A stretch of 64,000 bases of DNA. Origin: a virus. Taxonomy: Duplodnaviria > Caudoviricetes. The stretch is taken from IMG/VR virus record IMGVR_UViG_3300028280_000187; one strand, given 5' to 3'. Positions 29,857 through 56,194 of the stretch are shown here, one piece after another. Under the pieces are notes generated by a model that was not told the origin of the DNA, searched no databases, and worked only from the letters and a program-made list of their open reading frames with translations. Each line of letters opens with the position of its first letter. Position 1 is the first letter of the stretch. The position numbers and the translations under genes were made by a program.

Positions 29857-30240
29857 ATGTCAAATAAAGAAACTATTACGCCTTCAAGTGAACAACTTGA
29901 ACGGCTAGAAAGAGCATTAGAGTTTTCGAACACTATGCAGACTTTCAACCTTAATAAAAACAACTTAAAAGTTAAAACACAGAATTTATTGAACTATAGT
30001 AGTTCTGGTGGTACATTTAAAGTATCACAAGAATTGATTAATTTTATTAATATGATTGTTGTGTCTGGAAAAGATGAAGTAATTCTCTTAGACAAAAACG
30101 ACATTCCAATTAAAATTGAAGATACTAAGAAATTTTTAGAAGATATTTCTAGTTTGTATTTCGAAGTCATTAATGAATATTATAATGATTATCAGAAACT
30201 ACGTAGTTCACGTAAGATTGAGAAGGTCTTGGAAATCTAA
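29857..30240 (+). CDS. Hypothetical protein
   Basis: AAGGAG SD before ATG 29857; coupled to the next gene. Confidence 0.75.
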   Translation: MSNKETITPSSEQLERLERALEFSNTMQTFNLNKNNLKVKTQNLLNYSSSGGTFKVSQELINFINMIVVSGKDEVILLDKNDIPIKIEDTKKFLEDISSLYFEVINEYYNDYQKLRSSRKIEKVLEI

Positions 30241-31109
30241 TGAGCAAAGGCATTATAATCTTTGCGACAAATAATGGTTTACTAGATTACATAAAAATTG
30301 CATGTACATGTGCAGGATATGTAAGAAAAAATCTATCGGGGTTTGACGAAATAGCCCTAGTTACAAACAATGAATCATTGTTAGACAACGAAGAACTAGT
30401 AAACAAATATTTTGATAGAACTATTATTTCCGCATCAACACAAGATAGTAATATAAGGTTATTCAAAGATACTGCACAACAATCGCAGTATGCACCTTTC
30501 GTCAATATGTCACGTAGTGATGTATATGACCTATCACCTTACGAAGAAAGTTTGGTAATAGATTGTGATTACTTTGTAATGAGTGACACTCTTGACCAAG
30601 TATGGGGTAGTGAAAACGACTTCATGATTAATTGTCAATATAGGGACGTAGCTGGTAGACATGGCGGCAACGTTTCCTATATTGACGATTTCTCCATACC
30701 GATGTATTGGGCAACAGTCTTTTACTTTAGAAAATCCGAATACACTGAAAACTTATTCACTTTAGTTAGTCATATAAAAGAAAACTATAAGTACTATTAC
30801 TATTTGTATAATTGTTCTGGTACACTGTTTAGAAATGATTTTGCGTTCTCAATGGCTGTTCATATTTTAAATGGACAAGTAGCATGCCAAACACCTTCAT
30901 TGCCTATTGATTATCTAAACAACAGTTTTGATTTAGATGATATTTTTAGAGTAAACAGTGCAAATGATATTATAATGTATTGCGCCAAACCCGAAAAAAC
31001 AACTGAGCATATATTAGCTAGATTTACTAACACAGATATACATATTATGAACAAGTCTGCGATACAACGCAACATAGATGTGTTATTGGCGCAAGGAGAT
31101 ACGCTATGA
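30240..31109 (+). CDS. GT-A fold glycosyltransferase (GT8-like)
   Basis: Y.LSPYEESLVIDCD (DxD), WATVFYF, RNDFAF; paralog of the next gene. Confidence 0.7.
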   Translation: MSKGIIIFATNNGLLDYIKIACTCAGYVRKNLSGFDEIALVTNNESLLDNEELVNKYFDRTIISASTQDSNIRLFKDTAQQSQYAPFVNMSRSDVYDLSPYEESLVIDCDYFVMSDTLDQVWGSENDFMINCQYRDVAGRHGGNVSYIDDFSIPMYWATVFYFRKSEYTENLFTLVSHIKENYKYYYYLYNCSGTLFRNDFAFSMAVHILNGQVACQTPSLPIDYLNNSFDLDDIFRVNSANDIIMYCAKPEKTTEHILARFTNTDIHIMNKSAIQRNIDVLLAQGDTL

Positions 31110-31963
31110 GTAGAGGATATATTTGTATAGCACAGAATAGTAAGTATGATTATCTTAATCAGGCTTATGCTTTAGCGTTGTCGCTTAAAGCTACACAACA
31201 AGAGAATGCAATCTGTGTATGCGTAGATGCTTTAACAAAAACACAAATAACTGGTAAACACAAAGAAGTGTTTGACCATATAGTAGATATCCCTTGGCAC
31301 GATGATGCTGGTGCAGATGAATGGAAGATCCATAATAAATGGAAGTATCCACACATGACACCGTTCAAAGAAACTATTATTTTAGATACTGATGTGTTGT
31401 TTACACACCCAGTAGACCATTGGTGGGATCATCTATCTAAAAAAGATGTATGGGCATGTACACATGTCAAAACATTTAGAAACGAACAAGTAGTTGATGA
31501 CTACTATCGTAAAAAATTTACACAATTAGGTTTACCTAATGTGTATAGCAACATGACTTATTTTAAAGAATCAGATACAACTTTTGAATTGTTTAAAATG
31601 ATTGAATTGATTATGGTTCATTGGAACGTATACTATGATAAATTTCTTAAAGGTACTGGACAAGATTGGATGAGTGCAGACTTAGCCTATGCTCTTGCTA
31701 TTCGTTTATTAGATTTAGAAGAAGAAGTAATAGACAATGATATCAAAGATGTGCCTACGTTTACGCACATGAAAAGCTATATTCAAAACATTCCTAATAA
31801 CAAGATATCAGGTGTTTGGACAGAAAGTATCCCAAGCAGTTTATCAAGTGATTTAAAAATTCGTGTAGCAAATTATGAACAGTCACTTCCTTTTCACTAT
31901 GTTGAAAAGAAATGGCTTACAGAAGAAAAAATTAATATGTATGAAAAGGCACTAGATATATGA
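31106..31963 (+). CDS. GT-A fold glycosyltransferase (GT8-like)
   Basis: TPFKETIILDTD (DxD), FTHMK, PFHYVEK. Confidence 0.7.
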   Translation: MSRGYICIAQNSKYDYLNQAYALALSLKATQQENAICVCVDALTKTQITGKHKEVFDHIVDIPWHDDAGADEWKIHNKWKYPHMTPFKETIILDTDVLFTHPVDHWWDHLSKKDVWACTHVKTFRNEQVVDDYYRKKFTQLGLPNVYSNMTYFKESDTTFELFKMIELIMVHWNVYYDKFLKGTGQDWMSADLAYALAIRLLDLEEEVIDNDIKDVPTFTHMKSYIQNIPNNKISGVWTESIPSSLSSDLKIRVANYEQSLPFHYVEKKWLTEEKINMYEKALDI

Positions 31964-32547
31964 AAATATTAAGCACCGGGTTCACACATGAGACTAAAGA
32001 TGCAAGAGCGGTTAACTTCAATGAGCATGGTGACATTGTTAGTATAACATCTATGAGTATAGAAGATGATGTACTAAAATGTGCTTGGTTCTCTATGGAA
32101 TCTATAAAACCATTTCTTATGGGAAATTATAAGTTCTCTGATTACAAAGTAGTCAAAACAGATGATATATTTGTTTATGAGATTATAAAATCCAAAGTAG
32201 ATATTAAACAACGCAATAAAGATTCTCAACTACACAAATTGAATAATGAGAAGTATTGTGAAATATCTGTAACATGGGACGGAACCGAATTATGTTTTAC
32301 TCCTAGCAAAGAATTAGTGAAGAATGCAAACGTTGATGAACATCAAAATGTCACGTTGGCAGGAAAAACTCATCACCCATTTTTCATAACATATGAAAAT
32401 AGACCAGATTTTATTATACAAACTATCTCTATTCCGTTCGCAAAACTATTGAGTTCTGAGACTAGAGTTAAATTCGAATATAATAAATACAATATAAGTT
32501 TATATACCCAGAAATATCTGGAAACATATTCATTCAGGAGAACATGA
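31960..32547 (+). CDS. Hypothetical protein
   Basis: 195 aa ORF with overlapping start/stop on both sides. Confidence 0.75.
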   Translation: MKILSTGFTHETKDARAVNFNEHGDIVSITSMSIEDDVLKCAWFSMESIKPFLMGNYKFSDYKVVKTDDIFVYEIIKSKVDIKQRNKDSQLHKLNNEKYCEISVTWDGTELCFTPSKELVKNANVDEHQNVTLAGKTHHPFFITYENRPDFIIQTISIPFAKLLSSETRVKFEYNKYNISLYTQKYLETYSFRRT

Positions 32548-33524
32548 TGAGCAAACTAGAAATCGGCGAGTTAGATGTATTCTATCTAAGTTACGATGAG
32601 CCTAATAAAGAAGAACATTGGGCAGATATTATAAGTAAATTTCCATTTGCAAAGCGAGTAGACGGCGTAAAAGGATTCGACAATGCACATAAAGAATGTG
32701 CAAGACAAAGTGATACAGAAAGATTTATTACTATTGATGGTGATAATATCGTAGATGAAAAATTCTTTGATATGGAATTAACATTTCCAGAAGATACTGA
32801 TTTGGCAAACTCTGTTATCTCATGGTCAGCGAAGAACGTTGTTAACGGTCTAGTATACGGCAATGGTGGTATCAAATGCTGGCCAGTACAGCTTGTATTA
32901 GATATGAAAACCCATGAAAATGCAGTAGATGAAACAAAGAAAGTAGATTTTTGTTGGGACTTAAATTATATTCAGATGAATAACATTTATTCTACAGTAC
33001 ATAATGCAGGGTCTCCATTTCAAGCCTTTCGTGCAGGTTACCGTGAAGGTTCTAAAATGTCACTTGATGAGGGAAAGAAAGTACCAGTAGAAGACTTTAA
33101 GAAGTGTATCTGGCCTAAGAACTATGAACGTCTAATTACATGGATGAATATTGGTGCAAATGTAGAGAACGGACTATGGGCATGTTATGGTGCAAGACTA
33201 GGATGTTACGATACAAATCTTAACCCTGATTTTGTTTTAGAAAATATTTCTAGTTATGATTGGTTTAAAGAGTACTTTGATAATACTGTATTCCCTAAGT
33301 TTGAAGGCGGAGATATGAAATGCGAAAAGACAAAATTAGAATGGGACTATGAAAAATTATTTGATGAATGCTTAGTAATAGGTGATATTCTAGTAGATAA
33401 AATTGGTATGGAACTTTGTGATCCAACACCAGAGGTAGCAACATTCTTCAAACGTGTATATACGAATCCACCAAGAGTTAACAACCCATTAGCAACAGAA
33501 AAACAAACTGGCTGGGACAAATAA
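32544..33524 (+). CDS. Putative GT-A glycosyltransferase
   Basis: SYDEPN, RVDGVKG..AH, FITIDGDN (DxD), NGLVYGNGG, AFRAGYREG. Confidence 0.6.
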   Translation: MMSKLEIGELDVFYLSYDEPNKEEHWADIISKFPFAKRVDGVKGFDNAHKECARQSDTERFITIDGDNIVDEKFFDMELTFPEDTDLANSVISWSAKNVVNGLVYGNGGIKCWPVQLVLDMKTHENAVDETKKVDFCWDLNYIQMNNIYSTVHNAGSPFQAFRAGYREGSKMSLDEGKKVPVEDFKKCIWPKNYERLITWMNIGANVENGLWACYGARLGCYDTNLNPDFVLENISSYDWFKEYFDNTVFPKFEGGDMKCEKTKLEWDYEKLFDECLVIGDILVDKIGMELCDPTPEVATFFKRVYTNPPRVNNPLATEKQTGWDK

Positions 33525-33530
33525 TATATA

Positions 33531-35099
33531 ATGTCAAATTATGATGATGATGCACAGATAACGAAAGAAAAATTAAATTCTCTTTCACCGTCTATGTGTA
33601 TGGCTAAGTGGTTGCAAGTTAGTTTGCATCTGCCCCAAGGTCGCACACACAGTTGCTATCATCCACCTACACACCCTATTCCGTTAGAAGAACTTAAGAA
33701 AGATGTTAATGCATTACACAACACTACATTCAAATTAGAAGAAAGAAAGCAAATGAAATGCGGCACCCGTCCTGAAGGTTGTCAGTATTGCTGGAATGTA
33801 GAAGATGCGCCTGACGCCCAACAAGGCGGAAGACTTAGTGACAGACATTATCGTTCAAGTGAGTGGTGGGTTAAAGATGCATGGGACGAAGTCGTAAACA
33901 ATGACTTTGACCACAACATTACTCCTAGATATGTTGAGGTGAACTTTAATCAGGCTTGTAATTTCAAGTGTAGTTATTGTTCGCCTCATCTAAGTACAGC
34001 ATGGGAAGATGATATCAAAGAACATGGCGGCTTTCGTTTTTCAAATGGAACTGGTCATAATGATATCGATTACCTGCGTAAAACAGGTCTCATGCCATTA
34101 GAAGTAGCACGTAAGGACAATCCTTATATTGAAGCATTTTGGGAATGGTTTCCACAGATATACAGAGATTTGAAAGTATTTCGTATGACAGGCGGAGAGC
34201 CTCTTATGGATAATAATACATTCAAAGTATTTGACTATGTTAATGAAAACCCTAATCCTTTTCTTGACCTAAGTATTACATCGAATATGTGTCCACCAAG
34301 TCCTAAGTTGATGGATAAGTTTATTGAAAAAATACAAGCATTAGAAAAAATTCGTGTATGGGAAGACCCAGAACGTTTTAATCCTGATAGTGGCAATCAC
34401 TGGTATGTTGCACCAGCATGTAAACACTTTAGTTTATATGTGAGCGTAGATGGTGTAGGACCTCAAGCAGAATATATGCGTGACGGATTAGACTTTGATA
34501 CACTATATCAAAATTGTCGTAGAGTCTTAAGTGAAACAGATGGAACAGAAATTTCATTCATCAATACATTTCAATTATTGAGCATCCCAAATTTACGTGG
34601 GTTTTTGCAAATGATATTAGATTTACGTGAAGAATTTGGATATGAGAACCAAGAAGATAAAATTATTCAACCACCAGACCATGATGGGTTTAAGCACCCA
34701 GAGTTTGTACGTAAAAAACGCCAGCGTGTATGGTTTGACATTCCCTATCTGCGTTATCCTGATTGGATGACTATTCAATTAGCAGACCAAGAAATGCTGG
34801 ATGTAATTCAATCTAACATTGACTTTATGAAAGAAAATGTACTACCGAATGATTTATATGGTCGCAAGTATACAGGCTTTAAGAACTATGAAGTATTAAA
34901 ACTTGAACGAGATTTAGCATGGGCCAAAGAAGGACTAAATATGAGTGATGATGAATTAAGTAATAACTTAATTCGTTTTTATGAATACTTTACAGAGTAT
35001 GACAGACGTAGAGGATTAAACTTTTTAGAAACCTTTCCAGAAATGACAGCGTTTTGGAATGAAGCAAAAGAAGAAGCAGAGGAAAAATATGGGTCGTAA
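33531..35099 (+). CDS. Radical SAM protein with N-terminal Twitch/SPASM-like domain (type A1)
   Basis: CNFKCSYC, TGGEP; N-terminal CMAKW, SCYH, CQYCW. Confidence 0.9.
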   Translation: MSNYDDDAQITKEKLNSLSPSMCMAKWLQVSLHLPQGRTHSCYHPPTHPIPLEELKKDVNALHNTTFKLEERKQMKCGTRPEGCQYCWNVEDAPDAQQGGRLSDRHYRSSEWWVKDAWDEVVNNDFDHNITPRYVEVNFNQACNFKCSYCSPHLSTAWEDDIKEHGGFRFSNGTGHNDIDYLRKTGLMPLEVARKDNPYIEAFWEWFPQIYRDLKVFRMTGGEPLMDNNTFKVFDYVNENPNPFLDLSITSNMCPPSPKLMDKFIEKIQALEKIRVWEDPERFNPDSGNHWYVAPACKHFSLYVSVDGVGPQAEYMRDGLDFDTLYQNCRRVLSETDGTEISFINTFQLLSIPNLRGFLQMILDLREEFGYENQEDKIIQPPDHDGFKHPEFVRKKRQRVWFDIPYLRYPDWMTIQLADQEMLDVIQSNIDFMKENVLPNDLYGRKYTGFKNYEVLKLERDLAWAKEGLNMSDDELSNNLIRFYEYFTEYDRRRGLNFLETFPEMTAFWNEAKEEAEEKYGS

Positions 35100-36636
35100 A
35101 CATTGGGAGGGAGAAACCCTTCATCAATACAAAGAGCGTATGATTGATAGCAAGAGCGAAAGCTACTGTGCTTCTAAATGGTATAACGCTACTATCTGGT
35201 TAGGACATGGGCAGACTGCAAGTTGTCATCACCCACCAGGGCATTGGATCCCACTTGAAGAAATTAAAGATAATCCTTCAGCAATTCATAATACAAAGCA
35301 TAAGAAACTTATGCGTAAACATATGCAAGAAGGCAAAAGACCTGCTGAATGTGAATACTGTTGGAAAGTTGAAGACATGGGCAAGGATCATATATCTGAC
35401 CGTGTATTCAAAACTGAAATCTTTAAAGACGAAGATATTGACAAGAGTATGGAAATGCCATGGGATGATAACGTAAACTTGCGTACACTTGAAATCTCAT
35501 TTGATAGAGCATGTAATCTAAAATGTTCATATTGTAATCCTGCTTTCAGTACCGCATGGGTTAAAGATATCAATACATATGGTGGATATCAAAATATACA
35601 ATCTGATGGCAGAGGACACTTTGTTGATACTGCACCTTGGGCGGCTCCCAAGACAAAGAAAGAAGAAGACAACCCATACATACAAGCATTTCATAAATGG
35701 TGGGAGAGTGACTTAGCAGATTGTTTAGAAGAAATTCGTATCACTGGTGGTGAACCCATCATGCATAGAGGTACATGGAAATTGTTTGATTGGTTTGAAC
35801 AGAATCCAGATAGAGGACGTAATATGCGTTTTGCTATCAACTCTAACTTGTCTCCGGAGAAACCAAAAGTATTAGACAGATTAATTGAAAAGTCTTGGCA
35901 TGTCCCCAACTTTGAGATATACACTTCAATGGAAGCAACCAAAGACCAAGCAGAATATATACGTGATGGATTAGATTATGACTTATGGAAGAATAATATA
36001 CATCGTGTATTAAAAGAATCAAACGTAGCAAAACTACATATGATGATGACTATTAATTCACTGTGTCTTGTTACTATCACAAATTTTATGGATGAAATGT
36101 TAGACCTACGTGAAGAATATGGACAACGTGCTCCTACTATGACGCTAAACATTTTGCGTTTCCCTTCTTTTCAAAGTGCGGCAATACTTCCTGAGGATGT
36201 AAAGACATTTTATAAAGACAAACTAGAAGCATGGTTCAACACAGAAAGACCACAAGAAAAATTATCAGAAGGTGAAAAAGCAAGTATACAAAGATTGATT
36301 GACTATCTTGATATTGTTAAAACACCACATAAGAATACAGCAGAAACTCCGAAGCTATATAATGATTTTAAAGCATTCTTTTCTCAGTTTGATGTGCGAA
36401 GAGGACATAATTTCAGGGAAACATTCAAAGGACCTATTGCAGATTGGTACGAAACTTTAGAAGCAGAAGCACCAAGTAGAGAACAGATTTTGAATAAAGA
36501 ATTAGTATTTAAAAATAGCGACAGAGCAGGTGACCCAGCCACTACAAAAGACTATGAAGGAGGTGACGATGCTCACGAAAAAGTTGGTGGTTGGGACACT
36601 GAAAATGATGCACTAGGAGGAGTCAAAGTTGAATGA
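35089..36636 (+). CDS. Radical SAM protein with N-terminal Twitch/SPASM-like domain (type A2)
   Basis: CNLKCSYC, TGGEP; N-terminal CASKW, SCHH, CEYCW; AGAGG SD before ATG 35089. Confidence 0.9.
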   Translation: MGRKHWEGETLHQYKERMIDSKSESYCASKWYNATIWLGHGQTASCHHPPGHWIPLEEIKDNPSAIHNTKHKKLMRKHMQEGKRPAECEYCWKVEDMGKDHISDRVFKTEIFKDEDIDKSMEMPWDDNVNLRTLEISFDRACNLKCSYCNPAFSTAWVKDINTYGGYQNIQSDGRGHFVDTAPWAAPKTKKEEDNPYIQAFHKWWESDLADCLEEIRITGGEPIMHRGTWKLFDWFEQNPDRGRNMRFAINSNLSPEKPKVLDRLIEKSWHVPNFEIYTSMEATKDQAEYIRDGLDYDLWKNNIHRVLKESNVAKLHMMMTINSLCLVTITNFMDEMLDLREEYGQRAPTMTLNILRFPSFQSAAILPEDVKTFYKDKLEAWFNTERPQEKLSEGEKASIQRLIDYLDIVKTPHKNTAETPKLYNDFKAFFSQFDVRRGHNFRETFKGPIADWYETLEAEAPSREQILNKELVFKNSDRAGDPATTKDYEGGDDAHEKVGGWDTENDALGGVKVE

Positions 36637-37376
36637 AACGGCATATGATAATGTTCAATGCAAGAAGTGGAAGTACGGTAGTTGGCAATCATGTAGCGGC
36701 TAACTTATGCACTCCTGCATTTGACTTTAATGCACACGGATTGCCGTCAACTGAAATTCATGATTGTGAATATGACTGGTATTTTGATATGATTTCAGAA
36801 ATCAATAACAAATATCCAGGAATAGAATGGTGTATGAAATGGAACATTATGTGCGGACATATCGATTCTATGACCAAGTTAAACGAAAAAGTAAATCCAG
36901 AAGTTATATGGTATTTTAATTTTGATAAAGTACATCATTTCTTTAAAAGCCTAGGGGTTACTGATTTACATTTCACATTCAGACATGATATAATAGATAC
37001 AATATGTAGCTTCCTTATTGCAGAAGAAACAGGCAACTGGGTTATAGGTAAACGTAAAAAAGCAAAATACGATAAAATAACTTTTACACCCGAACAAATA
37101 TCGGCATGTATTGATTCATATGATTTAGCATACCAAGTGTATTCTCGGTCTGTAATAGAAATGATGGACAAGTACGATTGTCATTTTTATCCATATGAAG
37201 ATTTAGAAAATATCATCGACCTTGATAATGACCCACATGGGTTGATTAAGCAACTCAGTAAAGAAGATAAAAAACATATCATCACTAATTACGAAGAAGT
37301 AGAGAGAAGTATCAAGGAATCGAGAATATGGAAGTGTCAGTATGATAAACAGACTGGAGTGTATTCCTTTGATTAG
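36633..37376 (+). CDS. Sulfotransferase-like protein (Stf0-like)
   Basis: ARSGST 5'-PSB P-loop, FR...D...S..IA..TG.W, YEDL, I.NYEEV. Confidence 0.65.
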   Translation: MKRHMIMFNARSGSTVVGNHVAANLCTPAFDFNAHGLPSTEIHDCEYDWYFDMISEINNKYPGIEWCMKWNIMCGHIDSMTKLNEKVNPEVIWYFNFDKVHHFFKSLGVTDLHFTFRHDIIDTICSFLIAEETGNWVIGKRKKAKYDKITFTPEQISACIDSYDLAYQVYSRSVIEMMDKYDCHFYPYEDLENIIDLDNDPHGLIKQLSKEDKKHIITNYEEVERSIKESRIWKCQYDKQTGVYSFD

Positions 37377-38544
37377 TTACAATACAATATATGACCTTCA
37401 ACTAGAAGTAAGCAGTTTGTGTAACGCTAGATGTATTATGTGTAGTCGTAGAGAACAAGGTGGCGAAAAGAACCCAACATTTGTAGAAACATATTTAACA
37501 CTGCAAAATATAAAAGATTGGTTTCCAATTGATTTACTTAAGCAAGTAAAGATAATCGGAATGTGCGGAAACTTTGGCGATGCTATGACTAATCCAGAAC
37601 TTATAGATATAGTCAAGTATATCATATCAGTTAATCCAGATATCAAATTTACTATGAACACAAATGGCAGTGGCAGAGACGATAACTTCTGGCGTGAACT
37701 AGGTGAACTATTTAAAGGTAGGGGACAAGTTACTTTTAGTGTCGATGGATTAGAAGATACAAATTGGATATATAGACGAGGAACTCACTGGGATAAAATT
37801 ATATCTTCAATGAAGGCATATGTTTCAACTGGTGCAGATTCGTCTTGGGATTTTTTAGTGTTCAAACATAATCAACATCAAATAGAAGAAGCAAGAGAAC
37901 TATCAAAAAAGATAGGAATAACTAGCTTTTATCAAAAGAAAGCATTTGGATTTTATGATGGCGATGATAATGCAATGAATGTATATCGTAGTGATGGCAA
38001 ATTCGAATATACTATTATGGCACCAGATGAAGATTTACAAGGAACAAACAGAGACCCAAAAAGAGATACACAGAATTTAGGTAAGAATTGGTTATCAGGT
38101 AAGAAAAAAACTTCTACAGGATTTGTAGAAGATATAAAAAAACAATTAGAAAATGTAGAGAGTACTACAAAGACATTACATTGGAGTTTTAAAAATTATA
38201 CCAAGCCGAATGAATTAAGTCTCACTGATAGAAAACTTAGCGAATTAAAAATAAATTGCCAAGCATCTGAATCAAACAGTGTGTTCGTAGACCACAACGG
38301 TATAGTTGTTCCATGCTGTTGGATAGGTGCATTCTATCCCGGAGACGGCGGCGATATCTCACAACCAATAAAAGAATTTTTAGAAAAAGACGGCATAGAT
38401 AAAATATCATTAAAACATAATTCACTTGAGAATATTATAAATGGTGAAATGTTTTCAACCAGTTGGATTGAAAGTTTCAATGACTATGATATAAGAAATA
38501 AAAGATTGAAAGCCTGTTCAATATTTTGCGGAGTAAATGAATGA
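37369..38544 (+). CDS. Radical SAM protein with C-terminal SPASM/Twitch domain (type B1)
   Basis: CNARCIMC, CGNFGDAM, FSVDGLEDTN, VFKHNQHQ, C..PCC..CSIFCG; probable TTG start after GGAG. Confidence 0.9.
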   Translation: MISYNTIYDLQLEVSSLCNARCIMCSRREQGGEKNPTFVETYLTLQNIKDWFPIDLLKQVKIIGMCGNFGDAMTNPELIDIVKYIISVNPDIKFTMNTNGSGRDDNFWRELGELFKGRGQVTFSVDGLEDTNWIYRRGTHWDKIISSMKAYVSTGADSSWDFLVFKHNQHQIEEARELSKKIGITSFYQKKAFGFYDGDDNAMNVYRSDGKFEYTIMAPDEDLQGTNRDPKRDTQNLGKNWLSGKKKTSTGFVEDIKKQLENVESTTKTLHWSFKNYTKPNELSLTDRKLSELKINCQASESNSVFVDHNGIVVPCCWIGAFYPGDGGDISQPIKEFLEKDGIDKISLKHNSLENIINGEMFSTSWIESFNDYDIRNKRLKACSIFCGVNE

Positions 38545-39935: not shown

Positions 39936-39936
39936 C

Positions 39937-47177: not shown

Positions 47178-47550
47178 AGAAGAAATAACAAATCAATTTG
47201 AGCATAGCCAGATGACCAAGGCAGGAAAACTTGCTATGGAACTAGGTGCAGAAAAGAAAAGATTAAAAAAAGAATTAGCAGAACTACAGACAGAAGTAGA
47301 AGACTTAACTCCTACTACGCCAGTCGGAACAGTTGACTGGTATATCAAATGGGCGGCCATGGCATTGGCAGTGTCTGGTGTATTTCTAATGAGTGCGGGA
47401 CTAATATTTTGGGGACAAGTTGCATATATTATTAGTAGCATAGGATGGGTAGCAGTAGGTATGGCATGGGGAGATAGAGCGATTATGATAGGTAGTGCTA
47501 TCACTGGTACCGCAGTTATGATGAATTTCGTGCAGGGATATATAGTATGA
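47164..47550 (+). CDS. Small membrane protein with N-terminal coiled coil
   Basis: DWYIKW followed by three hydrophobic segments; AAGGAG SD. Confidence 0.7.
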   Translation: MDEIKEEITNQFEHSQMTKAGKLAMELGAEKKRLKKELAELQTEVEDLTPTTPVGTVDWYIKWAAMALAVSGVFLMSAGLIFWGQVAYIISSIGWVAVGMAWGDRAIMIGSAITGTAVMMNFVQGYIV

Positions 47551-48437: not shown

Positions 48438-49416
48438 TTATCAGTCTCAAACAAAAACAGATATACCAATACAAAGTTTTGATAATGATTTTGTTTATAC
48501 TGGTCCTAGTTGGGCTGTACAAAGTTATTCATCTCCATTAGGAGATAAAAGTGATGAGCCAAACATAAACATAGGTGATATGTTTGCAAAAGAATTTAAA
48601 CATAGTCTAGGAACACACAACCATGCATGGTTGCCTAGACATGGCAACAGTAATACAAAATGTGTACTAGAAATAAAAAAATGGCAAAAGAGAAAAGAGT
48701 ATGGAGTTGAACCATTCAGTGGACCAGTAATATGGGTCTTGTGCGATCCGTTAGCTAGATTATATTTTGATCCTGAGACAGGCCAACAGACATGGCCATT
48801 ATATAAGAAAGAAACAATACTTTATAAATCAATCACGTATAATAAATTTATTGAAAACTTACTTTGCAGTAATGATTGGCTATCGTACAGACATCAACTA
48901 TTACATATGGATTTAAAAGAAATGAATGAATTAAACATGCCTATAGGAATTATAGGATCTCATTCAGATATTACATATGTAGATGTTGAACCATATGAAA
49001 ATCTTACAGTCATAGAACCTAGTTGGCAAAATGTATTATGTGAACATGCAGGCATTAAAGGCATGTCTCCTAATCTAGGCGCAGACTTTGTACATCAAAC
49101 AATAAAAGCATACGCAAGTGAAGACGAAATTCATGCCTATATAGAAAAACATAATATAGATAAATACAGATGGGCACTGAATGAAAAGGTTGGAAAACTC
49201 ATGGCAATGTTAATGTCACAAGTTTTTGACCCTAAGATAACGAAATTTGTTCATCCCAATGTTGTAGACTATGTACACGGTCAATATGATTGTTGGAAAC
49301 AATTAGAAGAAAAACAATTATTTAACTGGGTACACCCAAGTATTGAGGGCAATTTAGTTTTCTATGAGCATGTAAAATATAAGATGGAGAAATTTGTAAA
49401 TGCTAACAAAAAATAG
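48427..49416 (+). CDS. SGNH-like hypothetical protein
   Basis: TGPSWA block I-like, HGNSN, C-terminal VHPS..G. Confidence 0.45.
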   Translation: MTYNYQSQTKTDIPIQSFDNDFVYTGPSWAVQSYSSPLGDKSDEPNINIGDMFAKEFKHSLGTHNHAWLPRHGNSNTKCVLEIKKWQKRKEYGVEPFSGPVIWVLCDPLARLYFDPETGQQTWPLYKKETILYKSITYNKFIENLLCSNDWLSYRHQLLHMDLKEMNELNMPIGIIGSHSDITYVDVEPYENLTVIEPSWQNVLCEHAGIKGMSPNLGADFVHQTIKAYASEDEIHAYIEKHNIDKYRWALNEKVGKLMAMLMSQVFDPKITKFVHPNVVDYVHGQYDCWKQLEEKQLFNWVHPSIEGNLVFYEHVKYKMEKFVNANKK

Positions 49417-50473
49417 TCATATGAACCCAGTGTATGGGAAAGAAGAAATAGAAAGCGTATACGACTATGTTAACTCTGGTGGTTGGATTATGGAACATAC
49501 CAAAACTAGAGAGTTAGAATCTCTTATATGTGACTATACTGGCGCCAAGTATGCACACATGGTAACAAGTGCTACTACAGGTCTCCTGTGTGCTTCTATG
49601 ATAGCTAAAATACAGCCAGGAGAAAAGTTTGCCGTAAGTGCGTATACACAAGCGGCTACATGTAACGGCGCAATACTAATGGGAGGCATACCAGTGATAG
49701 TTGATGTTGACCCATTTAGCTACTGTATAAACTTCGATAAGATACCATCTGATTGTAGAGTTATATTTGTATCAGCAATCAATGGAAGATACCCAAAAGA
49801 TGTTCAAGAACAAATCAAATCTTTAAGAGAAAGTGGTAGAGTCGTAATTGAAGACTCTGCACAAGCACTAGGTAGTAGAACAGTAAACGATATACACTGT
49901 GGTACTATGGGTGACATGGGCGTATTCAGTTTTGGAGCACCAAAGATTATTACTACAGGACAAGGTGGTTGCATCATTACTAATGATAAAGGTATTAGTG
50001 ATGAGATTGTAGCAATCAAAAACTTTGGCAGAACGGTCAAGGTTGGAGAAGTATATAATGTCATGGGTTCTAATTTTAAGTTTACAGATTTACAAGCATC
50101 TTTCGGTGTACCACAGATGAAGAAACTGCCATTTATTGTCGAGCATAAGAAACATTTATTTAAGTGGTATTGTAAACATCTAAAAGGTGTGGTAGATTTT
50201 ATTAATACTGATTTAGAATTTGTAACGCCAACGTATCCTGAAATATTAGTAAGCAAACGTGATGAACTTGTATTAGAATTACGAGAAGAAGGCATAGGAT
50301 GCCGTGCAGTATATGATAGTCTATGTAATCAACCCTTTCATAAACAATGGAAAACCCCTACACCAATTGCAGACGAATTAGCAAGTAGAGGCCTACATTT
50401 ACCAGGTCAGTTTGATTTACGTGAAGAAGACGTAAAGAAGATTGCAAGTGTTATTAAAAATCACGCGGCGTGA
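49400..50473 (+). CDS. DegT/DnrJ/EryC1/StrS PLP-dependent NDP-sugar aminotransferase
   Basis: SATTGL, IEDSAQALG, FSFGAPK.ITTGQGG (PLP lysine), GSNFKFTDLQA. Confidence 0.93.
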   Translation: MLTKNSHMNPVYGKEEIESVYDYVNSGGWIMEHTKTRELESLICDYTGAKYAHMVTSATTGLLCASMIAKIQPGEKFAVSAYTQAATCNGAILMGGIPVIVDVDPFSYCINFDKIPSDCRVIFVSAINGRYPKDVQEQIKSLRESGRVVIEDSAQALGSRTVNDIHCGTMGDMGVFSFGAPKIITTGQGGCIITNDKGISDEIVAIKNFGRTVKVGEVYNVMGSNFKFTDLQASFGVPQMKKLPFIVEHKKHLFKWYCKHLKGVVDFINTDLEFVTPTYPEILVSKRDELVLELREEGIGCRAVYDSLCNQPFHKQWKTPTPIADELASRGLHLPGQFDLREEDVKKIASVIKNHAA

Positions 50474-51354
50474 TATAACTTAACTAAACTATCAATACCA
50501 TCTTCAAGAGTTTCGGTAGCAGTGAATCCGATGTTTCTAATTTTTGAATAGTCAACAAAATAGTCTCTGCCATCTTTATCGTGAGATAATTCATCGTTAA
50601 TAATTAATTCATAATCGACTTTGCTTTTAATAATTTGTGCAATGTCTAACTTAGTATGATTTAATGTTTCATCACCGACATTCCATATCTCGCCTTTCAT
50701 AATATCGTATTTCTCTAACGCCCATCTGAATGAACGTGCCAAGTCGTTAATGCTTAAGAAAGTACGTTTGAAGTGCTTTTCAAATAAGACCAATTTCTTT
50801 TCAGCTATTGCTTTGTAAGTAAAGTCATTAACAAGTAAGTCTTGTCTTAATCTATTACTCACACCAAATGCAGTTGCTGGTCTTAGTATAACCGCATCAG
50901 TTCCTTCTAATTTCTTTTCACCATCAAGTTTGTAAACACTGTATGTACTGATTGGATTAGTCTCACATGTTTCGTCACATGTCTTGCCTAACTCACCGTA
51001 TACACTTCCTGTACTTGCATATACAAAAGGCTTATCAATAGAAGCATCAATAACTCTATTAGTTCCTTCTACATTAATTCTGTATGCTAAGTCTGGTTCA
51101 CGTTCACATGCAGGATATCCTACAATGCCTGCTAGATGTATTACTGCATCTGCACTTTTTAGAATAGGCTCAACTGCTGGATCACAGATATCCATCTTAT
51201 GTAGATGAAATCCTTTTCTATCTAAGATATTTAATATAGGTTGTACCCCATACTTTAACCAATCTATACAAATAACTTCATGTCCGTTATTCAGTAATTG
51301 TTCACTTAATCTACAACCAACATATCCTGCCCCGCCTGTTATTGCAATTTTCAT
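50461..51354 (-). CDS. NAD-dependent NDP-sugar epimerase/dehydratase/reductase
   Basis: ITGGAGYVG, HLAGIVG, ASTGSVYG, YSVYK (YxxxK). Confidence 0.92.
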   Translation of the reverse strand: MKIAITGGAGYVGCRLSEQLLNNGHEVICIDWLKYGVQPILNILDRKGFHLHKMDICDPAVEPILKSADAVIHLAGIVGYPACEREPDLAYRINVEGTNRVIDASIDKPFVYASTGSVYGELGKTCDETCETNPISTYSVYKLDGEKKLEGTDAVILRPATAFGVSNRLRQDLLVNDFTYKAIAEKKLVLFEKHFKRTFLSINDLARSFRWALEKYDIMKGEIWNVGDETLNHTKLDIAQIIKSKVDYELIINDELSHDKDGRDYFVDYSKIRNIGFTATETLEDGIDSLVKLYHAA

Positions 51355-51941
51355 TTTATGTTCTCCTTGAATAATTTATAATCTTCTAAGTAATATTCCT
51401 TAATTTGTGCTTTATATTTTTTTAATTGTAATTTTAATTCTTCTTTCTGTTTAGAAATATCATTATAACGTGTTGTATTTTGAATGGTCTCTAATACATT
51501 ATCTATATGTTTATGTCCTATAGGTCTTATGTTGTCTGCATCTATATAATGCAAAGGTACATCTTCAAGCCCTTCTAAAAAACTACACTGAGTTTTCATG
51601 TGAACATCGTCTTCCCTGTTACTTAACCACCATTCTATGCTTTCTTCTATTGTACAATTATATATTTTTGATACTACTGATAGCTGTCCTAAAAATCGTT
51701 CACTAGGGTATCGTATAAATGTATAACCTGTATAAGAAAGTGTCCATGAATCATTTTTTGGCAGTGATACAAGTTTATAATCATATTGTTCTGCTATATT
51801 GAACAAGAAACTTGAACTAGCATTTCTCCAAATAGGAACAAAGTACGTATGGTGTTTATGATTTATCCATATGGCGTCTTCCCATAACTTGACTGACCCG
51901 TTCTGTGCAATCACTTCTTTGGCAGTATATTCTCTAATCAT
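51351..51941 (-). CDS. Sulfotransferase family 2-like protein
   Basis: FVPIWRNASSS (5'-PSB-like), TFIRYPSERF (3'-PB-like), H.KTQ..F, Y.EDYKLF. Confidence 0.6.
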   Translation of the reverse strand: MIREYTAKEVIAQNGSVKLWEDAIWINHKHHTYFVPIWRNASSSFLFNIAEQYDYKLVSLPKNDSWTLSYTGYTFIRYPSERFLGQLSVVSKIYNCTIEESIEWWLSNREDDVHMKTQCSFLEGLEDVPLHYIDADNIRPIGHKHIDNVLETIQNTTRYNDISKQKEELKLQLKKYKAQIKEYYLEDYKLFKENIK

Positions 51942-53124
51942 CTGATTTATTTTCTGCAATATGTACTATGGGCATTGCAAATAACATTCTACCGCCTTGC
52001 TCAATCCATTCACTTTCTTTTTCTGTAAACATATCTTTAAACCCAAAGTTAGGAACAAAGAACAAGTCTGCATCTTTCTTTGCATCATCTTCGTGTACAA
52101 TGGGTATACCTGTGCCGACTGTGAATCTGCCTACTTTGTCTGGATGTATTTCTGCCGCACCATCAAACAACCCATGTAGTTTCCAAAATTGCAACATTGT
52201 ATTTCCTTTTGTACTAGCGCCGTAAACATAATTCTTACCGCCGTTTTTCTTGTTGTCTGTCAATACGGTTCTTAATAACGCACCGTTGCGTTCTACATCA
52301 TTAAAGAATGTTTTCAATGAAGATAAGTCTTCGTAGTGTTCAATACTGCCTTCATTCTTTTTTCTAGCCCACAGTTGATAACTACCGCCTTGTATATCGT
52401 TCTCTACTACTTTGTAAATCTCAAGACCATTAGTTTCATATAATTCTACAAGACTTTTATAGCTGTAGTATTCTAAATGTTCATGACATACATTGCCTAA
52501 GTCTTTCATTTTAAGCATAGGAGCAAGTGTCATTAACTGAGCAATAAAAATGCCATCATCGGTCATCGCCTCATTTACGCTATAAATGAAATCATTTGGA
52601 TTATCCATATCATAAAACATACCAATAGCAGTAATAACTTTTGCTTTCTTACCTTGCATCAGTTTGTAATGCCACATGTCATTAATTGTTGCTTCGCAAT
52701 TCTTTACTAACTTCTTAATTAGATTAGGTGCTGGTTCGCATCCTATCCTATATCTATCTGAGTTAACTGCACTAAGTAGTGTACCGTCATTTGCACCGAT
52801 ATCTAATACAACATCACCTTTAGTAGTGTTGTCATTTATATATCCTGCAATGTCGAATAGGTTATCTTTTAGTTTCTTGTTAAGTCCACTTTCATACCAA
52901 TAGTGTTCACCATATAATACTTTTGGATTAACTGTATGTCTAAGTTGAACCAAATCACAATTCACACATTGGTCCAGAACCATGGGCGCTTCTCCCGGAG
53001 TATGATTTGGGTCTAAAGGAAAATCATTTATGTGTATAGAACCAAAGTCTACAACCTTTTTAACCTCAGAACCACAAACTCTACAGTCCGTTCGTTCATT
53101 TATAATCATAGGATAATTACTCAT
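51934..53124 (-). CDS. NDP-hexose 3-C-methyltransferase (Zn-binding)
   Basis: CRVCGS and C..C Zn site, LDIGANDG, HEHLEYY, YGASTKGN. Confidence 0.9.
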   Translation of the reverse strand: MSNYPMIINERTDCRVCGSEVKKVVDFGSIHINDFPLDPNHTPGEAPMVLDQCVNCDLVQLRHTVNPKVLYGEHYWYESGLNKKLKDNLFDIAGYINDNTTKGDVVLDIGANDGTLLSAVNSDRYRIGCEPAPNLIKKLVKNCEATINDMWHYKLMQGKKAKVITAIGMFYDMDNPNDFIYSVNEAMTDDGIFIAQLMTLAPMLKMKDLGNVCHEHLEYYSYKSLVELYETNGLEIYKVVENDIQGGSYQLWARKKNEGSIEHYEDLSSLKTFFNDVERNGALLRTVLTDNKKNGGKNYVYGASTKGNTMLQFWKLHGLFDGAAEIHPDKVGRFTVGTGIPIVHEDDAKKDADLFFVPNFGFKDMFTEKESEWIEQGGRMLFAMPIVHIAENKSDD

Positions 53125-53500
53125 TAGTATCTACCCTAGTCAAAGGCTCATCACAGTCGTCCCATTTCTTCGTTATGAGTGCGATTGCTTTTGAGTCTGA
53201 TGTTGGATAGAATGTATGAGGTGTCAGTCTAGGAATAAAGATACAGTCTCCTGTTGCAACGGGAGTTACTAATTCTTTTCCTTCTGATAACTCAGTATAC
53301 ACACCGCTTCCTTCTACAAACATAATGTATTCATCAAACTCTTTGTGTAGATGATGTCCTCTCACAGAACCTTTTAGAGTTACTATATAACTCCATTCTT
53401 TAATATCAGTTGTTTGAGGATAGTATGTGCTTATTATACCTCTGCCATCTTTAACTGTTATTGGATTGATATCTGGGTCTAGTTTAATAATTCTTTTCAT
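53117..53500 (-). CDS. Cupin, NDP-sugar isomerase/epimerase-like (FdtA/WxcM/RmlC type)
   Basis: DGRG, VRGHHLHK..DE, IP...PH motifs. Confidence 0.7.
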   Translation of the reverse strand: MKRIIKLDPDINPITVKDGRGIISTYYPQTTDIKEWSYIVTLKGSVRGHHLHKEFDEYIMFVEGSGVYTELSEGKELVTPVATGDCIFIPRLTPHTFYPTSDSKAIALITKKWDDCDEPLTRVDTNE

Positions 53501-53527: not shown

Positions 53528-53535
53528 TATTTATC
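53528..53535 (-). promoter_or_regulatory. Putative late promoter GATAAATA for the minus-strand sugar operon
   Basis: tatttatc on the plus strand, 27 nt upstream of ATG 53500 and just downstream of a terminator. Confidence 0.7.
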
Positions 53536-55348: not shown

Positions 55349-55379
55349 AATTAACCTCTCTATTGTTGATTATGTATAT

Positions 55380-55407
55380 ACTATAACACGATTCGATAGT
55401 TTGTCAA
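55380..55407 (-). promoter_or_regulatory. Early sigma70 promoter with GANTC in spacer
   Basis: TTGACA-AACTATCGAATCGTGT-TATAGT. Confidence 0.85.
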
Positions 55408-55411
55408 GTTT

Positions 55412-56194
55412 TTAGCTATTATTTTTTCTTTGTATGTCTGTTTCTTCACATAATTCACCATATTGTACTTCAATTATGTGTGCTGGTTCATCACCGATAT
55501 TTGTTGTTTTATGCCAGCATTCCTTAGGTATTAAGAATGTGTCATGTGGACGCAGATAGATTGCTTCTTTTTTCTTACCAAATTCTAGTTCAATCATGAT
55601 ATCTCCTTCTAAGACATACCAATATTCGTTTCTATATCTATGTTTCTGATTTGATAAACTCTTGCGTGGGTTGATAACTAGTTCTTTGACTTTTTGCCCA
55701 ACCTTAGGTTGCTTATCATCAAGTACTCGCCAGTAGCCCCATGTTCTATGTGTTCTCTGTGTTTTCCAATCATCAAGTATCCAACTACTAGAGTTACGTT
55801 TGTTTGTACCACCTACACCAAATTCAAATCTGACCCATGGCATTTCTGCGTATTGTTTGTATTCGGGTGTTGTAGCATTACCTCTATCTCCGCCATTTGC
55901 GAATATAAACTTAGTACCAATTGGATACATAGATTGTATCTTGTATAATGCGTAACTGGCTGTATCGTCACTATCATCAAAGTCAATAACCTTGTCAACT
56001 ACTTCTAGTGCTTCGATGATTGCTTTGCGTTCAGCAAAGTTCATAAATGCTCTGCCTTTTTTACGGGTAAGCCATTCGTCTGAATTTATCCCTACGACTA
56101 ATTCATCACCGAGTTCTTTTGCTGATTTAAAATACTCTATATGTCCAGAGTGTAGTGGGTCGAACCCACCCGTTACTAAAACTACTTCTTTCAT
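55412..56194 (-). CDS. Cytidylyltransferase-family nucleotidyltransferase fused to a type II mannose-6-phosphate isomerase-like cupin
   Basis: TGGFDPLHSGH (HxGH), NSDEWL.RKKG, FANGGDR, K.NSSS; then R.WG.WRVL, LS.QKH..R.E.W, IIEVQYG..C.E.DI.R. Confidence 0.88.
   Translation of the reverse strand: MKEVVLVTGGFDPLHSGHIEYFKSAKELGDELVVGINSDEWLTRKKGRAFMNFAERKAIIEALEVVDKVIDFDDSDDTASYALYKIQSMYPIGTKFIFANGGDRGNATTPEYKQYAEMPWVRFEFGVGGTNKRNSSSWILDDWKTQRTHRTWGYWRVLDDKQPKVGQKVKELVINPRKSLSNQKHRYRNEYWYVLEGDIMIELEFGKKKEAIYLRPHDTFLIPKECWHKTTNIGDEPAHIIEVQYGELCEETDIQRKNNS

Follow-up and report, generated by a model that had tools for sequence, protein, structure and literature searches.

A phage island of glycosyltransferases and seven radical SAM enzymes behind the tail genes that may build and edit a glycan on a protein

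We find that an uncultured marine jumbo phage carries, directly behind its tail genes, a ~26-kb stretch of soluble sugar-transferring, sugar-modifying and seven radical SAM genes (positions 29857-56194 of the window, the 64,000-nucleotide stretch of viral DNA analysed here; Table 1). Its genome measures ~322-342 kb, whereas the smaller pelagimyophages have less than half that size. The island probably builds a glycoconjugate. We regard the chances as about even that it does so as a wholly cytoplasmic, phage-encoded system in which a glycan is assembled and edited while attached to a protein or peptide, and the nature of that acceptor, taken on its own, is an equally balanced call; an acceptor in the virion specifically is somewhat less probable. 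Virion glycosylation, put forward in a preliminary description of this DNA, is nevertheless a plausible candidate role, and a soluble glycan pathway does lie behind the virion genes. The analysis itself shows gene families and folds, along with synteny, the promoter and distribution.

Throughout 29857-53500 the genes are separated by gaps of at most 40 nt, in agreement with the tight coupling described before. The preliminary description also saw no obvious terminator in the 56-nt gap ahead of the first gene, but it missed a near-consensus sigma70-type promoter there, whose hexamers are kept and whose spacers have diverged in the relatives L006, L008, L013 and L029. Judged by this motif, the operon is headed by its own conserved, early-type sigma70 promoter and would not simply be part of the late tail transcript. 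Such a promoter suits modification of the host surface or of DNA no less well than decoration of the virion. The minus-strand sugar operon is preceded by a late-promoter-like motif that has five copies in the window, four of which stand in short gaps between genes and are directed towards a gene. The entire island contains a single TM-like segment, inside the DUF6552 product, and therefore no flippase, Wzy or ABC exporter, as had been stated; a priming phosphoglycosyl transferase, a polymerase, a ligase or any polytopic membrane protein is likewise absent from it. With three GT-A-type and one GT-B-type transferase domains, enzymes that tailor NDP-sugars and neither membrane nor export components, the earlier proposal of a cytoplasmic pathway for building and tailoring a glycan is supported. 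The right-hand end of the interval probably lies outside the island, because the FG-GAP gene has its own promoter, and because the nucleotidyltransferase-cupin gene (55412-56194), itself probably not part of the island proper, pairs with speD, also in relatives without sugar genes; both points had been overlooked.

Table 1. Features of the island and its flanks (positions in the window).
Feature	Position	Strand	Evidence or remarks
Sigma70-type promoter, TTGACA-17-TATTAT, followed by AAGGAG and ATG at 29857	29804..29832	+	near-consensus; in 56-nt gap
Conserved 127-aa protein, function not assigned, first core gene	29857..30240	+	no HMM match; orthologs in L006, L008, L013, RsoM2USA ORF354
GT8-like (glycogenin-like) GT-A glycosyltransferase, paralog 1	30240..31109	+	profile; invariant DxD (D108, D110); no Pfam match
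GT8-like GT-A glycosyltransferase, paralog 2	31106..31963	+	profile; phrog_1903; RsoM2USA ORF352
195-aa protein, no assigned function, variable in sequence	31960..32547	+	position in core
GT-A-fold transferase with helical C-terminal domain	32544..33524	+	AF2 model, fold matches, invariant D65xD67
N-terminal-twitch radical SAM (NF033640)	33531..35099	+	294 bits; CNFKCSYC at residue 143
N-terminal-twitch radical SAM (NF033640), acidic C-terminal tail	35059..36636	+	311 bits
247-aa protein, sulfotransferase-like by motif only	36633..37376	+	RSGST; FRxDxxDTxxS (alignment A8)
Radical SAM, C-terminal SPASM/twitch-type domain	37342..38544	+	Radical_SAM 44.6 bits, SPASM 21.7 bits; alignment A7
N-terminal-twitch radical SAM (NF033640)	38541..39935	+	331 bits
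335-aa protein, function not assigned	39901..40908	+	no family or PDB match; recurs between radical SAM genes in relatives
N-terminal-twitch radical SAM (NF033640)	40937..42124	+	361 bits
Radical SAM, C-terminal auxiliary-cluster domain	42124..43320	+	HMM matches; alignment A7
Radical SAM, C-terminal auxiliary-cluster domain	43289..44542	+	HMM matches; alignment A7
880-aa three-domain protein	44535..47177	+	GT-B-like ~40-410; 51351-like middle ~430-600; class I methyltransferase-like ~620-870
DUF6552 small membrane protein, sole TM-bearing island product	47164..47550	+	HMM, TM scan
Fcl-like SDR (GDP-fucose-synthase-like)	47547..48437	+	below equivalog cut-off; Thr at catalytic-Tyr position
337-aa protein, SGNH-like by motif only	48403..49416	+	GPSW...HPSxxGN
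DegT/DnrJ/EryC1-type sugar aminotransferase	49400..50473	+	207 bits; LegC/PseC-like, below cut-offs
NAD-dependent sugar epimerase/reductase, extended SDR	50461..51354	-	GxxGxxG, YxxxK
202-aa protein, sulfotransferase-like by motif only	51351..51959	-	homologous to middle domain of 880-aa protein (alignment A5)
NDP-sugar C-methyltransferase architecture	51934..53124	-	Methyltransf_13 + 23 + 14
Small cupin, weakly FdtA/WxcM-like	53117..53500	-	HMM
GATAAATA, late-promoter-like motif ahead of minus-strand sugar operon	53528..53535	-	motif search
Cytidylyltransferase-like + PMI-type cupin fusion, co-operonic with speD	55412..56194	-	HMM

Comparison with relatives divides the island into two parts. 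The conserved core consists of hyp-GT8-GT8-hyp-GT-A and the four N-terminal-twitch enzymes (29857-36636 plus 38541-39935 and 40937-42124). Its order, 28850-hyp-GT8-GT8-hyp-GT-A-N_Twi-GT-A', is kept behind a giant virion protein in the cultured Ralstonia phage RsoM2USA, whose ORF361, ORF359 and ORF356 are virion proteins (PMC8504454), and the core recurs in part in Bdellovibrionia chromosomes. The position right behind virion genes, already recognised for this phage, is thus conserved as far as a cultured one. Outside the core, the three radical SAM enzymes with C-terminal auxiliary-cluster domains, the 880-aa protein and the Fcl-like, DegT, SDR, C-methyltransferase and cupin genes make up an optional module; the 880-aa protein and the sugar genes occur together in seven of seven loci and are both absent from nine fully covered loci.

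The three GT-A genes proposed earlier (30240, 31106 and 32544, named here by their first positions) are recognised by no HMM library, and their assignment stands on profiles and folds instead. The first two are paralogs, and their joint profile (alignment A4) matches glycogenin-1/2 (GT8) with E ~1e-5 across the half that holds the DxD. The AF2 model of 32544 (pLDDT 92) contains a GT-A domain that structure comparison (VIA Z ~10) relates to B4GALNT1, SpsA, SunS and PBCV-1 A64R; with more than 7600 homologs in 1167 clusters at 50% identity, this protein would, on the modelled fold, found a large unannotated GT-A family. In prokaryote genomes, the family neighbours N_Twi genes at 29 of 80 loci, directly at 15, Bdellovibrionia chromosomes included. 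Fold matches to GT-B and class I methyltransferases lend modest support to the suggested fusion in the 880-aa protein, although its model is mediocre (pLDDT 63), and HMM, PDB-sequence and ESM searches returned no match for it.

Exactly seven CxxxCxxC ORFs lie between 33531 and 44542, and all seven match Radical_SAM, which confirms the count given before. Four of them score 294-361 bits against NF033640 N_Twi_rSAM (cut-off 170 bits) and share the CxxxCxxC and GGEP motifs and four invariant N-terminal cysteines, whereas 37342, 42124 and 43289 have the radical SAM core first, followed by five invariant C-terminal cysteines; in L008, an in-frame fusion joins the ortholog of 43289 to the homolog of the 880-aa protein, which follows it. 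Orthologs of the four N_Twi enzymes are 71-96% identical across 18 viral contigs, and the 40937 protein is found unchanged on at least 159 contigs of up to 322 kb. The paralogs are mutually only 18-22% identical and thus appear to be ancient and long diverged within one operon. NF033640 is a catalogue family for which the literature searched yielded no characterised member. A related complete genome holds eleven N_Twi paralogs, some scattered away from the tail genes and including a second array with Asp/Asn beta-hydroxylases, and in Vibrio phage K566 no partner GT could be detected for the four N_Twi-like genes; paralogs remote from tail genes and N_Twi-like genes lacking a GT count against a glycan built and edited on a protein.

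On what do these enzymes act? The N-terminal region of the N_Twi proteins aligns with the twitch domain of BtrN (E 0.002) and the core matches BlsE (E 3e-7). BtrN and BlsE act on sugars or nucleoside sugars and have the auxiliary [4Fe-4S] twitch domain in common with the island enzymes, although the domain order is inverted in N_Twi. These matches would fit the BtrN/NeoN-like sugar tailoring suggested before, but TvgB and SkfB match equally well or better. Action on sugars is thus no more than a candidate role, because the nearest solved relatives of the core by sequence include the peptide maturases TvgB (8VPO), SkfB and CteB alongside BlsE and MoaA.

HMM matches bear out the previously listed Fcl-like, DegT, SDR, C-methyltransferase and cupin genes and the cytidylyltransferase-PMI-cupin fusion. 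The two SDRs (one of them Fcl-like), the C-methyltransferase, the aminotransferase and the cupin form a set that may parallel GDP-sugar pathways to C-methyl-branched 6-deoxyhexoses, such as that of Coxiella virenose, or those with TylC3-type NDP-hexose C-methyltransferases. The set differs in that its enzymes all fall below equivalog cut-offs, that a Thr takes the place of the catalytic Tyr in the Fcl-like protein and that neither operon nor island holds a 4,6-dehydratase; a clear nucleotidyltransferase for this branch was not found inside the operon either. The branched, aminated glycan suggested before would fit the DegT and C-methyltransferase genes, but these belong to the optional module and not to the core. 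Overall, the gene content described earlier held for the radical SAM and sugar enzymes and, by deeper methods, for GT-A and GT-B, but not beyond motifs for the rest: neither putative sulfotransferase (36633, 51351) has an HMM match, 36633 lacks Pfam and PDB matches and has a weak ESM lead to PF09037, and the SGNH-like ORF has no HMM or PDB match. Sulfation of the glycan is likewise a suggestion from motifs.

The best pointer to the acceptor comes from bacteria, where 32544-domain homologs fused to GT-B adjoin double-glycine leader peptides with G/S/T/Y/C-rich cores, in cassettes that also hold a C39-ABC exporter, HlyD, another GT-A and a GT8. Because relatives of 32544 sit in such glycopeptide cassettes, a protein or peptide acceptor is favoured by analogy. 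Glycocin-type systems are similar in leader peptide, C39-ABC and HlyD, and their S-/O-glycosyltransferases SunS and ThuS are among the fold matches of 32544 (Z 8.7-8.8); the phage island differs from them in lacking leader peptide, protease and exporter, and the bacterial cassettes seen differ from the island in lacking radical SAM genes.

Alternatively, the island might remodel the host surface, which we consider unlikely. At the inner membrane face, the soluble GT8-like and GT-A enzymes would work on host lipid A-core or a different lipid-linked glycan, unusual residues would come from the radical SAM and sugar enzymes, and host MsbA or Wzx would export the product, the changed receptor blocking superinfection or freeing progeny from trapping. 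GT8 is a family of LPS-core transferases, and the GT8-like character of 30240 and 31106 would fit, as would the early-type promoter and the LpxO-like hydroxylases of the second array; such a role has been proposed for the cassettes of GT and radical-SAM genes that pelagimyophages carry in their host recognition clusters (PMC7029224). However, the island lacks the membrane machinery named above, the bacterial relatives of 32544 belong to peptide-glycosylation cassettes, and a host-specific LPS target is hard to square with a core conserved across phages of hosts as different as marine bacteria and Ralstonia. Less probable still is a RiPP-like maturation system unrelated to the virion, in which radical SAM enzymes and GTs would modify a host protein or a small phage protein, such as the 127-aa or 195-aa product, and so yield an effector, glycosylated and cross-linked by radical chemistry, that acts within the infected cell or beyond it. 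The maturases closest to the N_Twi core, the leader peptide cassettes and the two conserved small core proteins are consistent with it, but the window has no leader-type precursor, C39 protease/ABC exporter or RRE domain, its intergenic gaps leave no space for a peptide gene that annotation overlooked, neither the 127-aa nor the 195-aa ORF is rich in Ser, Thr or Cys, and the many NDP-sugar enzymes point to glycan chemistry. In T-even phages, early enzymes attach glucose or arabinose to hmC, and the soluble enzymes and early-type promoter here could likewise serve to put an unusual sugar on a modified phage base and evade restriction or CRISPR, but this is very improbable: the window has no base-hydroxymethylase, DNA-kinase or DpdA/TGT-type gene, the thymidylate synthase of the related genome looks ordinary (339 bits), we know of no GT8/glycogenin-like or SpsA-like GT-A enzyme that acts on DNA, synteny with structural genes is conserved, and the same GT domain serves bacterial peptide cassettes.

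How might a glycan be built and edited on a protein? Acceptor, product and chemistry are what we infer here. We envision that the GTs would start a short glycan on phage proteins rich in Ser and Thr and then lengthen it. The fibre and baseplate proteins, whose genes directly precede the island, are the foremost candidates; the three ORFs immediately ahead of the island are Cys-free and contain 18-26% Ser+Thr. Where present, the optional module might start from an NDP-4-keto-6-deoxyhexose of the host, add a C-methyl and an amino group to it and so contribute a branched amino sugar of a rare kind. With 5'-deoxyadenosyl radicals and an auxiliary [4Fe-4S] cluster, the radical SAM enzymes may oxidise, epimerise, deoxygenate or cross-link either the sugars or the acceptor, in reactions that need no oxygen.

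Comparable in part is virus-encoded virion glycosylation (PBCV-1 A64R, 2P6W; mycobacteriophage capsid and tail), which also employs soluble GT-A enzymes near structural genes and no export machinery. A64R matches the fold of 32544 (Z 8.3) at ~9-12% sequence identity; to our knowledge these systems involve no radical SAM enzymes, and they glycosylate virions, whereas the present island is known from its genes. In marine T4-like phages, hypervariable regions by the tail-fibre genes likewise contain GTs, LPS-type sugar genes and radical SAM cassettes, among them the pelagimyophage host recognition cluster (PMC7029224) and an environmental genome with 12 radical SAM genes (PMC5332604). Those reports list genes and propose O-antigen modification or Fe-S metabolism; they define no core, neither the N-twitch family nor the novel GT-A family is recognised in them, and a connection with RsoM2USA and Bdellovibrionia goes unmentioned. 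New here are the conserved core, the optional module, the operon promoter and the bacterial glycopeptide-cassette relatives of the GT-A domain.

We consider it likely that the gene block starting at 29857 specifies a system for building and tailoring a glycoconjugate around an ancient core of glycosyltransferases (GTs) and radical SAM enzymes. Its source is an uncultured marine jumbo myophage, which encodes upstream of the island a gp47/SbcD-like nuclease, a gp55-like late sigma factor, a gp5-like baseplate hub/lysozyme and a prohead protease, together with giant proteins of 1621, 1448 and 2946 aa. The exact protein of ORF 40937 (window ORFs are named by their start coordinate) is encoded on at least 159 metagenome contigs, which reach lengths of up to 322 kb; a relative at 88% identity is a complete genome of 342.6 kb that has terminal repeats. 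When the island was compared by megablast with 50,697 phage records, nothing matched, so that no cultured phage corresponds to it at the nucleotide level; judged by its proteins, the nearest relative in culture is RsoM2USA, a jumbo phage of Ralstonia. The island fits a host recognition cluster of the pelagimyophage type, that is, a variable block of GT, sugar and radical SAM genes beside the fibre genes of a T4-like phage, and its content differs among the 18 related viral contigs that formed our comparison set. GT and radical SAM cassettes near tail-fibre genes, the feature shared by both, have been listed without analysis for pelagimyophages (PMC7029224), as has a T4-like genome that carries 12 genes for radical SAM enzymes (PMC5332604).

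The synteny check across related phages advocated in the preliminary description found key core genes nearly throughout the 18 viral contigs and the core order kept in RsoM2USA. Orthologs of ORF 32544 and of the four island enzymes of the N-terminal-twitch radical SAM family (NCBIfam NF033640; N_Twi hereafter) are present in nearly all of these contigs at 71-96% identity, and the number of N_Twi paralogs at this place rises to eight or nine in some relatives. An 880-aa protein and the Fcl-like, DegT, SDR, C-methyltransferase and cupin genes constitute one optional module: they occur together in seven loci and are jointly absent from nine fully covered ones, a co-occurrence that is not a strict statistic because the loci are related. 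In RsoM2USA, ORF355-348 run in the order 28850, hypothetical gene, GT8-like, GT8-like, small ORF, 32544-like, N_Twi and 32544 paralog, and follow the giant ORF361 protein, detected by mass spectrometry as part of virions (PMC8504454). Searching prokaryote genomes with a 32544 profile returned 80 loci; by our own HMMs a strong N_Twi gene lies within 10 kb in 29 of them and directly adjacent in 15. Bacterial contexts of N_Twi were thus reached indirectly, through 32544-family loci, and some of the N_Twi-bearing ones probably represent phage contigs that were mis-binned. In Bdellovibrionia, contigs as long as 494 kb hold a compact set of GT, short GT paralog, N_Twi and two more radical SAM genes amid ordinary cellular genes, and Rhodobacterales isolates carry the GT without N_Twi, the one context examined there (Ruegeria) being GT-rich.

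What do the core GTs resemble? Ten island ORFs and ten divergent homologs returned nothing usable from Pfam (to E 10), NCBIfam or PHROGs. Although these HMM libraries give no match, profile and fold evidence supports all three GT-A enzymes recognised earlier from the sequence. ORFs 30240 and 31106 are paralogs with an invariant DxD (D108, D110), and their joint profile matches glycogenin-1/2 (GT8) in the PDB (E 9e-6 to 2e-3) along a stretch of about 110 residues up to the DxD. This match covers the nucleotide-binding half and stops short of the invariant C-terminal H268 and K272; neither protein matches PF01501 at E up to 10, which places both outside the GT8 HMM family. ORF 32544 falls into an unannotated family that is very large (more than 7600 matches in one search, 1167 clusters at 50% identity in another). 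Its model, built from a 34-sequence alignment, has a pLDDT of 92, and residues 4-155 superpose on GT-A enzymes with VIA Z 8-10 over about 140 residues and Foldseek E from 5e-4; the fold matches include B4GALNT1, a Leptospira GT, STIV A197, SpsA, SunS, ThuS, PBCV-1 A64R and mimivirus R699. Because nucleotidyltransferases of the same fold also match this model at Z 8-9, we infer transferase activity from fold and motif. A nucleotidyltransferase nevertheless appears less likely, since D65xD67 is invariant or nearly so in the alignment, a GxGxR signature is absent, and many family representatives are C-terminal fusions to GT-B enzymes of the GT28/EryCIII type.

As originally counted, the CxxxCxxC motif occurs in exactly seven ORFs, each of which encodes a radical SAM protein. 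By whole-protein score over the curated cut-off of 170 bits, four belong to NF033640 (33531, 294 bits; 35059, 311; 38541, 331; 40937, 361) and three do not (37342, 42124 and 43289, 30-52 bits). The four N_Twi proteins share invariant C6, C25, C75 and C78 ahead of the core C131/C135/C138 in the alignment; SPASM Pfam matches fall at residues 6-110, and the same region can be aligned to the twitch domain at the C-terminus of BtrN (E 0.002). They are mutually just 18-22% identical, consistent with paralogs that are old and individually conserved. The other three form a second paralog family in which the core comes first and is followed by five invariant C-terminal cysteines, also present in two paralogs; Pfam SPASM scores 37342 barely above its cut-off (21.7 bits) and 43289 below it (18.8), and does not match 42124. 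From the CxxxCxxC and GGEP/GN(F/Y)GD motifs, reductive SAM cleavage by a [4Fe-4S] cluster would be predicted. The solved proteins nearest to the N_Twi core by sequence are TvgB (8VPO), SkfB, BlsE (a nucleoside-sugar decarboxylase), CteB and MoaA. TvgB is a RiPP cyclopropyl synthase (PMC10878394). Our search of the literature on N-terminal-twitch radical SAM proteins found no characterised enzyme.

N_Twi genes also occur away from this setting. The related complete genome has 11 of them at six places, and its second radical SAM array (L025; 90-110 kb of genome G001), away from the tail genes, combines three N_Twi proteins, two C-terminal-domain types and two other radical SAMs with a 32544 paralog, two Asp/Asn beta-hydroxylases, an aminotransferase and RpiB, with thymidylate synthase adjoining. 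The cultured Vibrio phage K566 (161.5-168.3 kb) has four N_Twi-like genes in a single block, and our own profiles found neither a GT8-like nor a 32544-like gene as a partner up to 9 kb away.

The sugar genes of the preliminary description (Fcl-like SDR, DegT aminotransferase, second SDR, C-methyltransferase, cupin and nucleotidyltransferase-PMI fusion) are all real, and all score below equivalog cut-offs. The C-methyltransferase has a Methyltransf_13/23/14 architecture. The Fcl-like SDR reaches 222 bits against an Fcl equivalog cut-off of 500 and thus falls outside GDP-L-fucose synthase; it keeps GSTCSYP and the His, and has P-T-A-L-P-K at the position of the catalytic Tyr (YxxxK) of Fcl.

Other assignments are more tentative. 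For the 880-aa protein, described as a fusion of a GT-B-like enzyme and a methyltransferase, Foldseek on a pLDDT-63 model matches TarM, SdgB, OtsA and 3oy2 (GT-B; E 3e-4 to 5e-3, about 370-400 columns) and class I methyltransferases (E 2e-3 to 8e-3, about 220-250 columns), and the protein carries the motif ILDVGTHFG; HMM and PDB-sequence searches gave no match and the ESM Atlas nothing usable. A homolog of its middle domain exists as a separate gene, the 202-aa ORF 51351. In one 187-kb relative the 43289 ortholog and the 880-aa homolog form a single 1295-aa frame with no stop between; we considered a frameshift artefact, but the frame reads through cleanly, in this one contig only. The two sulfotransferase-like ORFs, and with them a sulfated product, are reduced to motifs: 36633 has invariant R11-x-G-S-T and F-R117-x-D-x-x-D-T-x-x-S, and 51351 and the 880-aa middle domain share R-x-P-x-x-R, all PAPS-loop-like by eye, and these two ORFs and their homologs have no match, to a sulfotransferase family or otherwise, in Pfam, NCBIfam, PHROGs or the PDB. 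The sole lead, a weak one from ESM, has PF09037 in 12% of the members of three of the 30 nearest clusters. Likewise, the SGNH-like call for 48403 comes down to GPSW (S36) and HPSxxGN (H311), with no HMM or PDB match. PDB-sequence profile searches were empty or returned noise for the 880-aa protein, 36633, 39901 and 48403, and neither family nor PDB profiles explain 39901.

Inside the island genes abut or overlap, with no intergenic gap above 40 nt, which bears out the tight coupling noted before. The island is real, and we end it at about 53535 instead of 56194 because the FG-GAP/VCBS gene, which separates the sugar and speD operons, has its own promoter, and because the nucleotidyltransferase-cupin gene pairs with speD and, in a relative that has no sugar genes, is still found next to speD as a copy or a part. 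RsoM2USA also encodes a VCBS-repeat protein.

Coordinates of features in and near the island and in related loci
Feature	Coordinates	Strand	Remark
Double-glycine leader peptide ORFs	L037:9705-9914, L036:9390-9923, L033:3254-3463, L030:705-1046		Beside GT-B::32544 fusion cassettes
speD-like S-adenosylmethionine decarboxylase overlapping cytidylyltransferase-like/PMI-cupin fusion	55412-56624	-	Pair conserved in related complete genome (L026)
585-aa protein, N-terminal peptidoglycan-binding domain and FG-GAP/VCBS repeats	53591-55348	-	Own sigma70-type promoter
Fcl-like SDR	47547-48437		
Peptidyl-tRNA hydrolase PTH2-like gene	57598-57996		
Radical SAM/880-aa fusion frame	L008:11188-15072	+	187-kb relative
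DUF6552-like small membrane protein	L028:7589-7741		Directly upstream of lone N_Twi (8965-10404) in related genome; echoes island DUF6552

How might the island be expressed? The 56-nt gap before 29857 indeed contains no terminator-like site, and it holds TTGACA-17-TATTAT followed by AAGGAG and ATG, a sigma70-type promoter at 29804 that is the only strong intergenic site of this type on the plus strand of the structural block and whose hexamers are kept, with differing spacers, in four relatives. Near-consensus sigma70-type promoters also precede minus-strand non-structural genes (63041, 62649, 61652, 58057, 55407, 12778 and 12361); most of these have CGAATC, a GANTC site, in the spacer, and the 29804 promoter does not. 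The sequence TATAAATA, the T4 late-promoter core, is absent from the 64-kb window (0 against 11.3 expected). Four of the five window copies of GATAAATA are located in short gaps between genes and each face a gene (2715, 13543 and 27138 on the plus strand, 53528 on the minus strand); the copy at 27138 is upstream of the last structural genes and that at 53528 precedes the minus-strand cupin/C-methyltransferase operon. This arrangement suggests that GATAAATA may be a variant late-promoter consensus for the gp55-like sigma factor. Judging from these sites, transcription of the main operon probably starts early at its own promoter, and late read-through perhaps adds a second round, which weakens the argument from co-transcription with the tail genes.

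Which molecule receives the glycan? GT-B::32544 fusions in three independent metagenomic contexts occupy the same type of bacterial cassette, with one or two small ORFs that combine a double-glycine leader (…LLNG…AGG) with a core rich in Gly, Ser, Thr, Tyr and Cys, an HlyD/AprE-type protein, an ABC exporter with C39 peptidase and a 235-aa GT-A, in one case with a Pfam GT8. This is the architecture of secreted glycopeptides. Glycocin systems, whose transferases SunS and ThuS are among the fold matches of 32544, likewise combine a double-glycine leader peptide with a C39-ABC exporter, and the bacterial cassettes may represent a new, undescribed glycocin-like class. Because the bacterial fusions sit in such leader-peptide cassettes, the comparison makes a protein or a peptide the favoured acceptor of the 32544 family; the argument is one of guilt by association and bears on that family, not directly on the phage. 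For the island itself we regard a protein or peptide acceptor as an even call, and a virion acceptor specifically as a tentative proposal. Three Cys-free ORFs just upstream of the island, with 18-26% Ser+Thr, and the Ser/Thr-rich segment of a giant protein are candidate acceptors only.

Alternatively, the island might remodel the host surface, which seems to us rather unlikely. The earlier statement that flippase, Wzy and ABC exporter are missing holds, because the only TM-like segment is in a small DUF6552 protein, and no part of a Wzx/Wzy- or ABC-dependent O-antigen or capsule pathway (priming transferase, flippase/polymerase, exporter) has a Pfam match in the island. A non-virion protein or a RiPP-like product is less probable still: no leader-bearing precursor and no dedicated protease or exporter is found among the island ORFs, and the gaps between its genes do not exceed 40 nt. 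We give very little credence to modification of DNA.

Returning to a protein-linked glycan, we can envision, as a speculative extension, an ancient O2-independent toolkit for glycan and protein editing, comprising the novel GT-A enzymes and N_Twi and shared by jumbo phages and the predatory Bdellovibrionia, that would place radical-derived modifications (for example keto, epimerised, deoxygenated, or C-C or C-S cross-linked residues) on a protein-linked glycan of the virion fibres. To our knowledge, radical-derived glycan decoration of this kind has not been described for any virus. The proposal is directly testable because the core module exists in RsoM2USA, a cultured and tractable phage. 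If fibres or another protein do carry a radically tailored glycan, this would be new chemistry in the recognition between ocean viruses and their hosts, and would provide a first function for NF033640 and the 32544-type GT-A family, which together have thousands of uncharacterised members.
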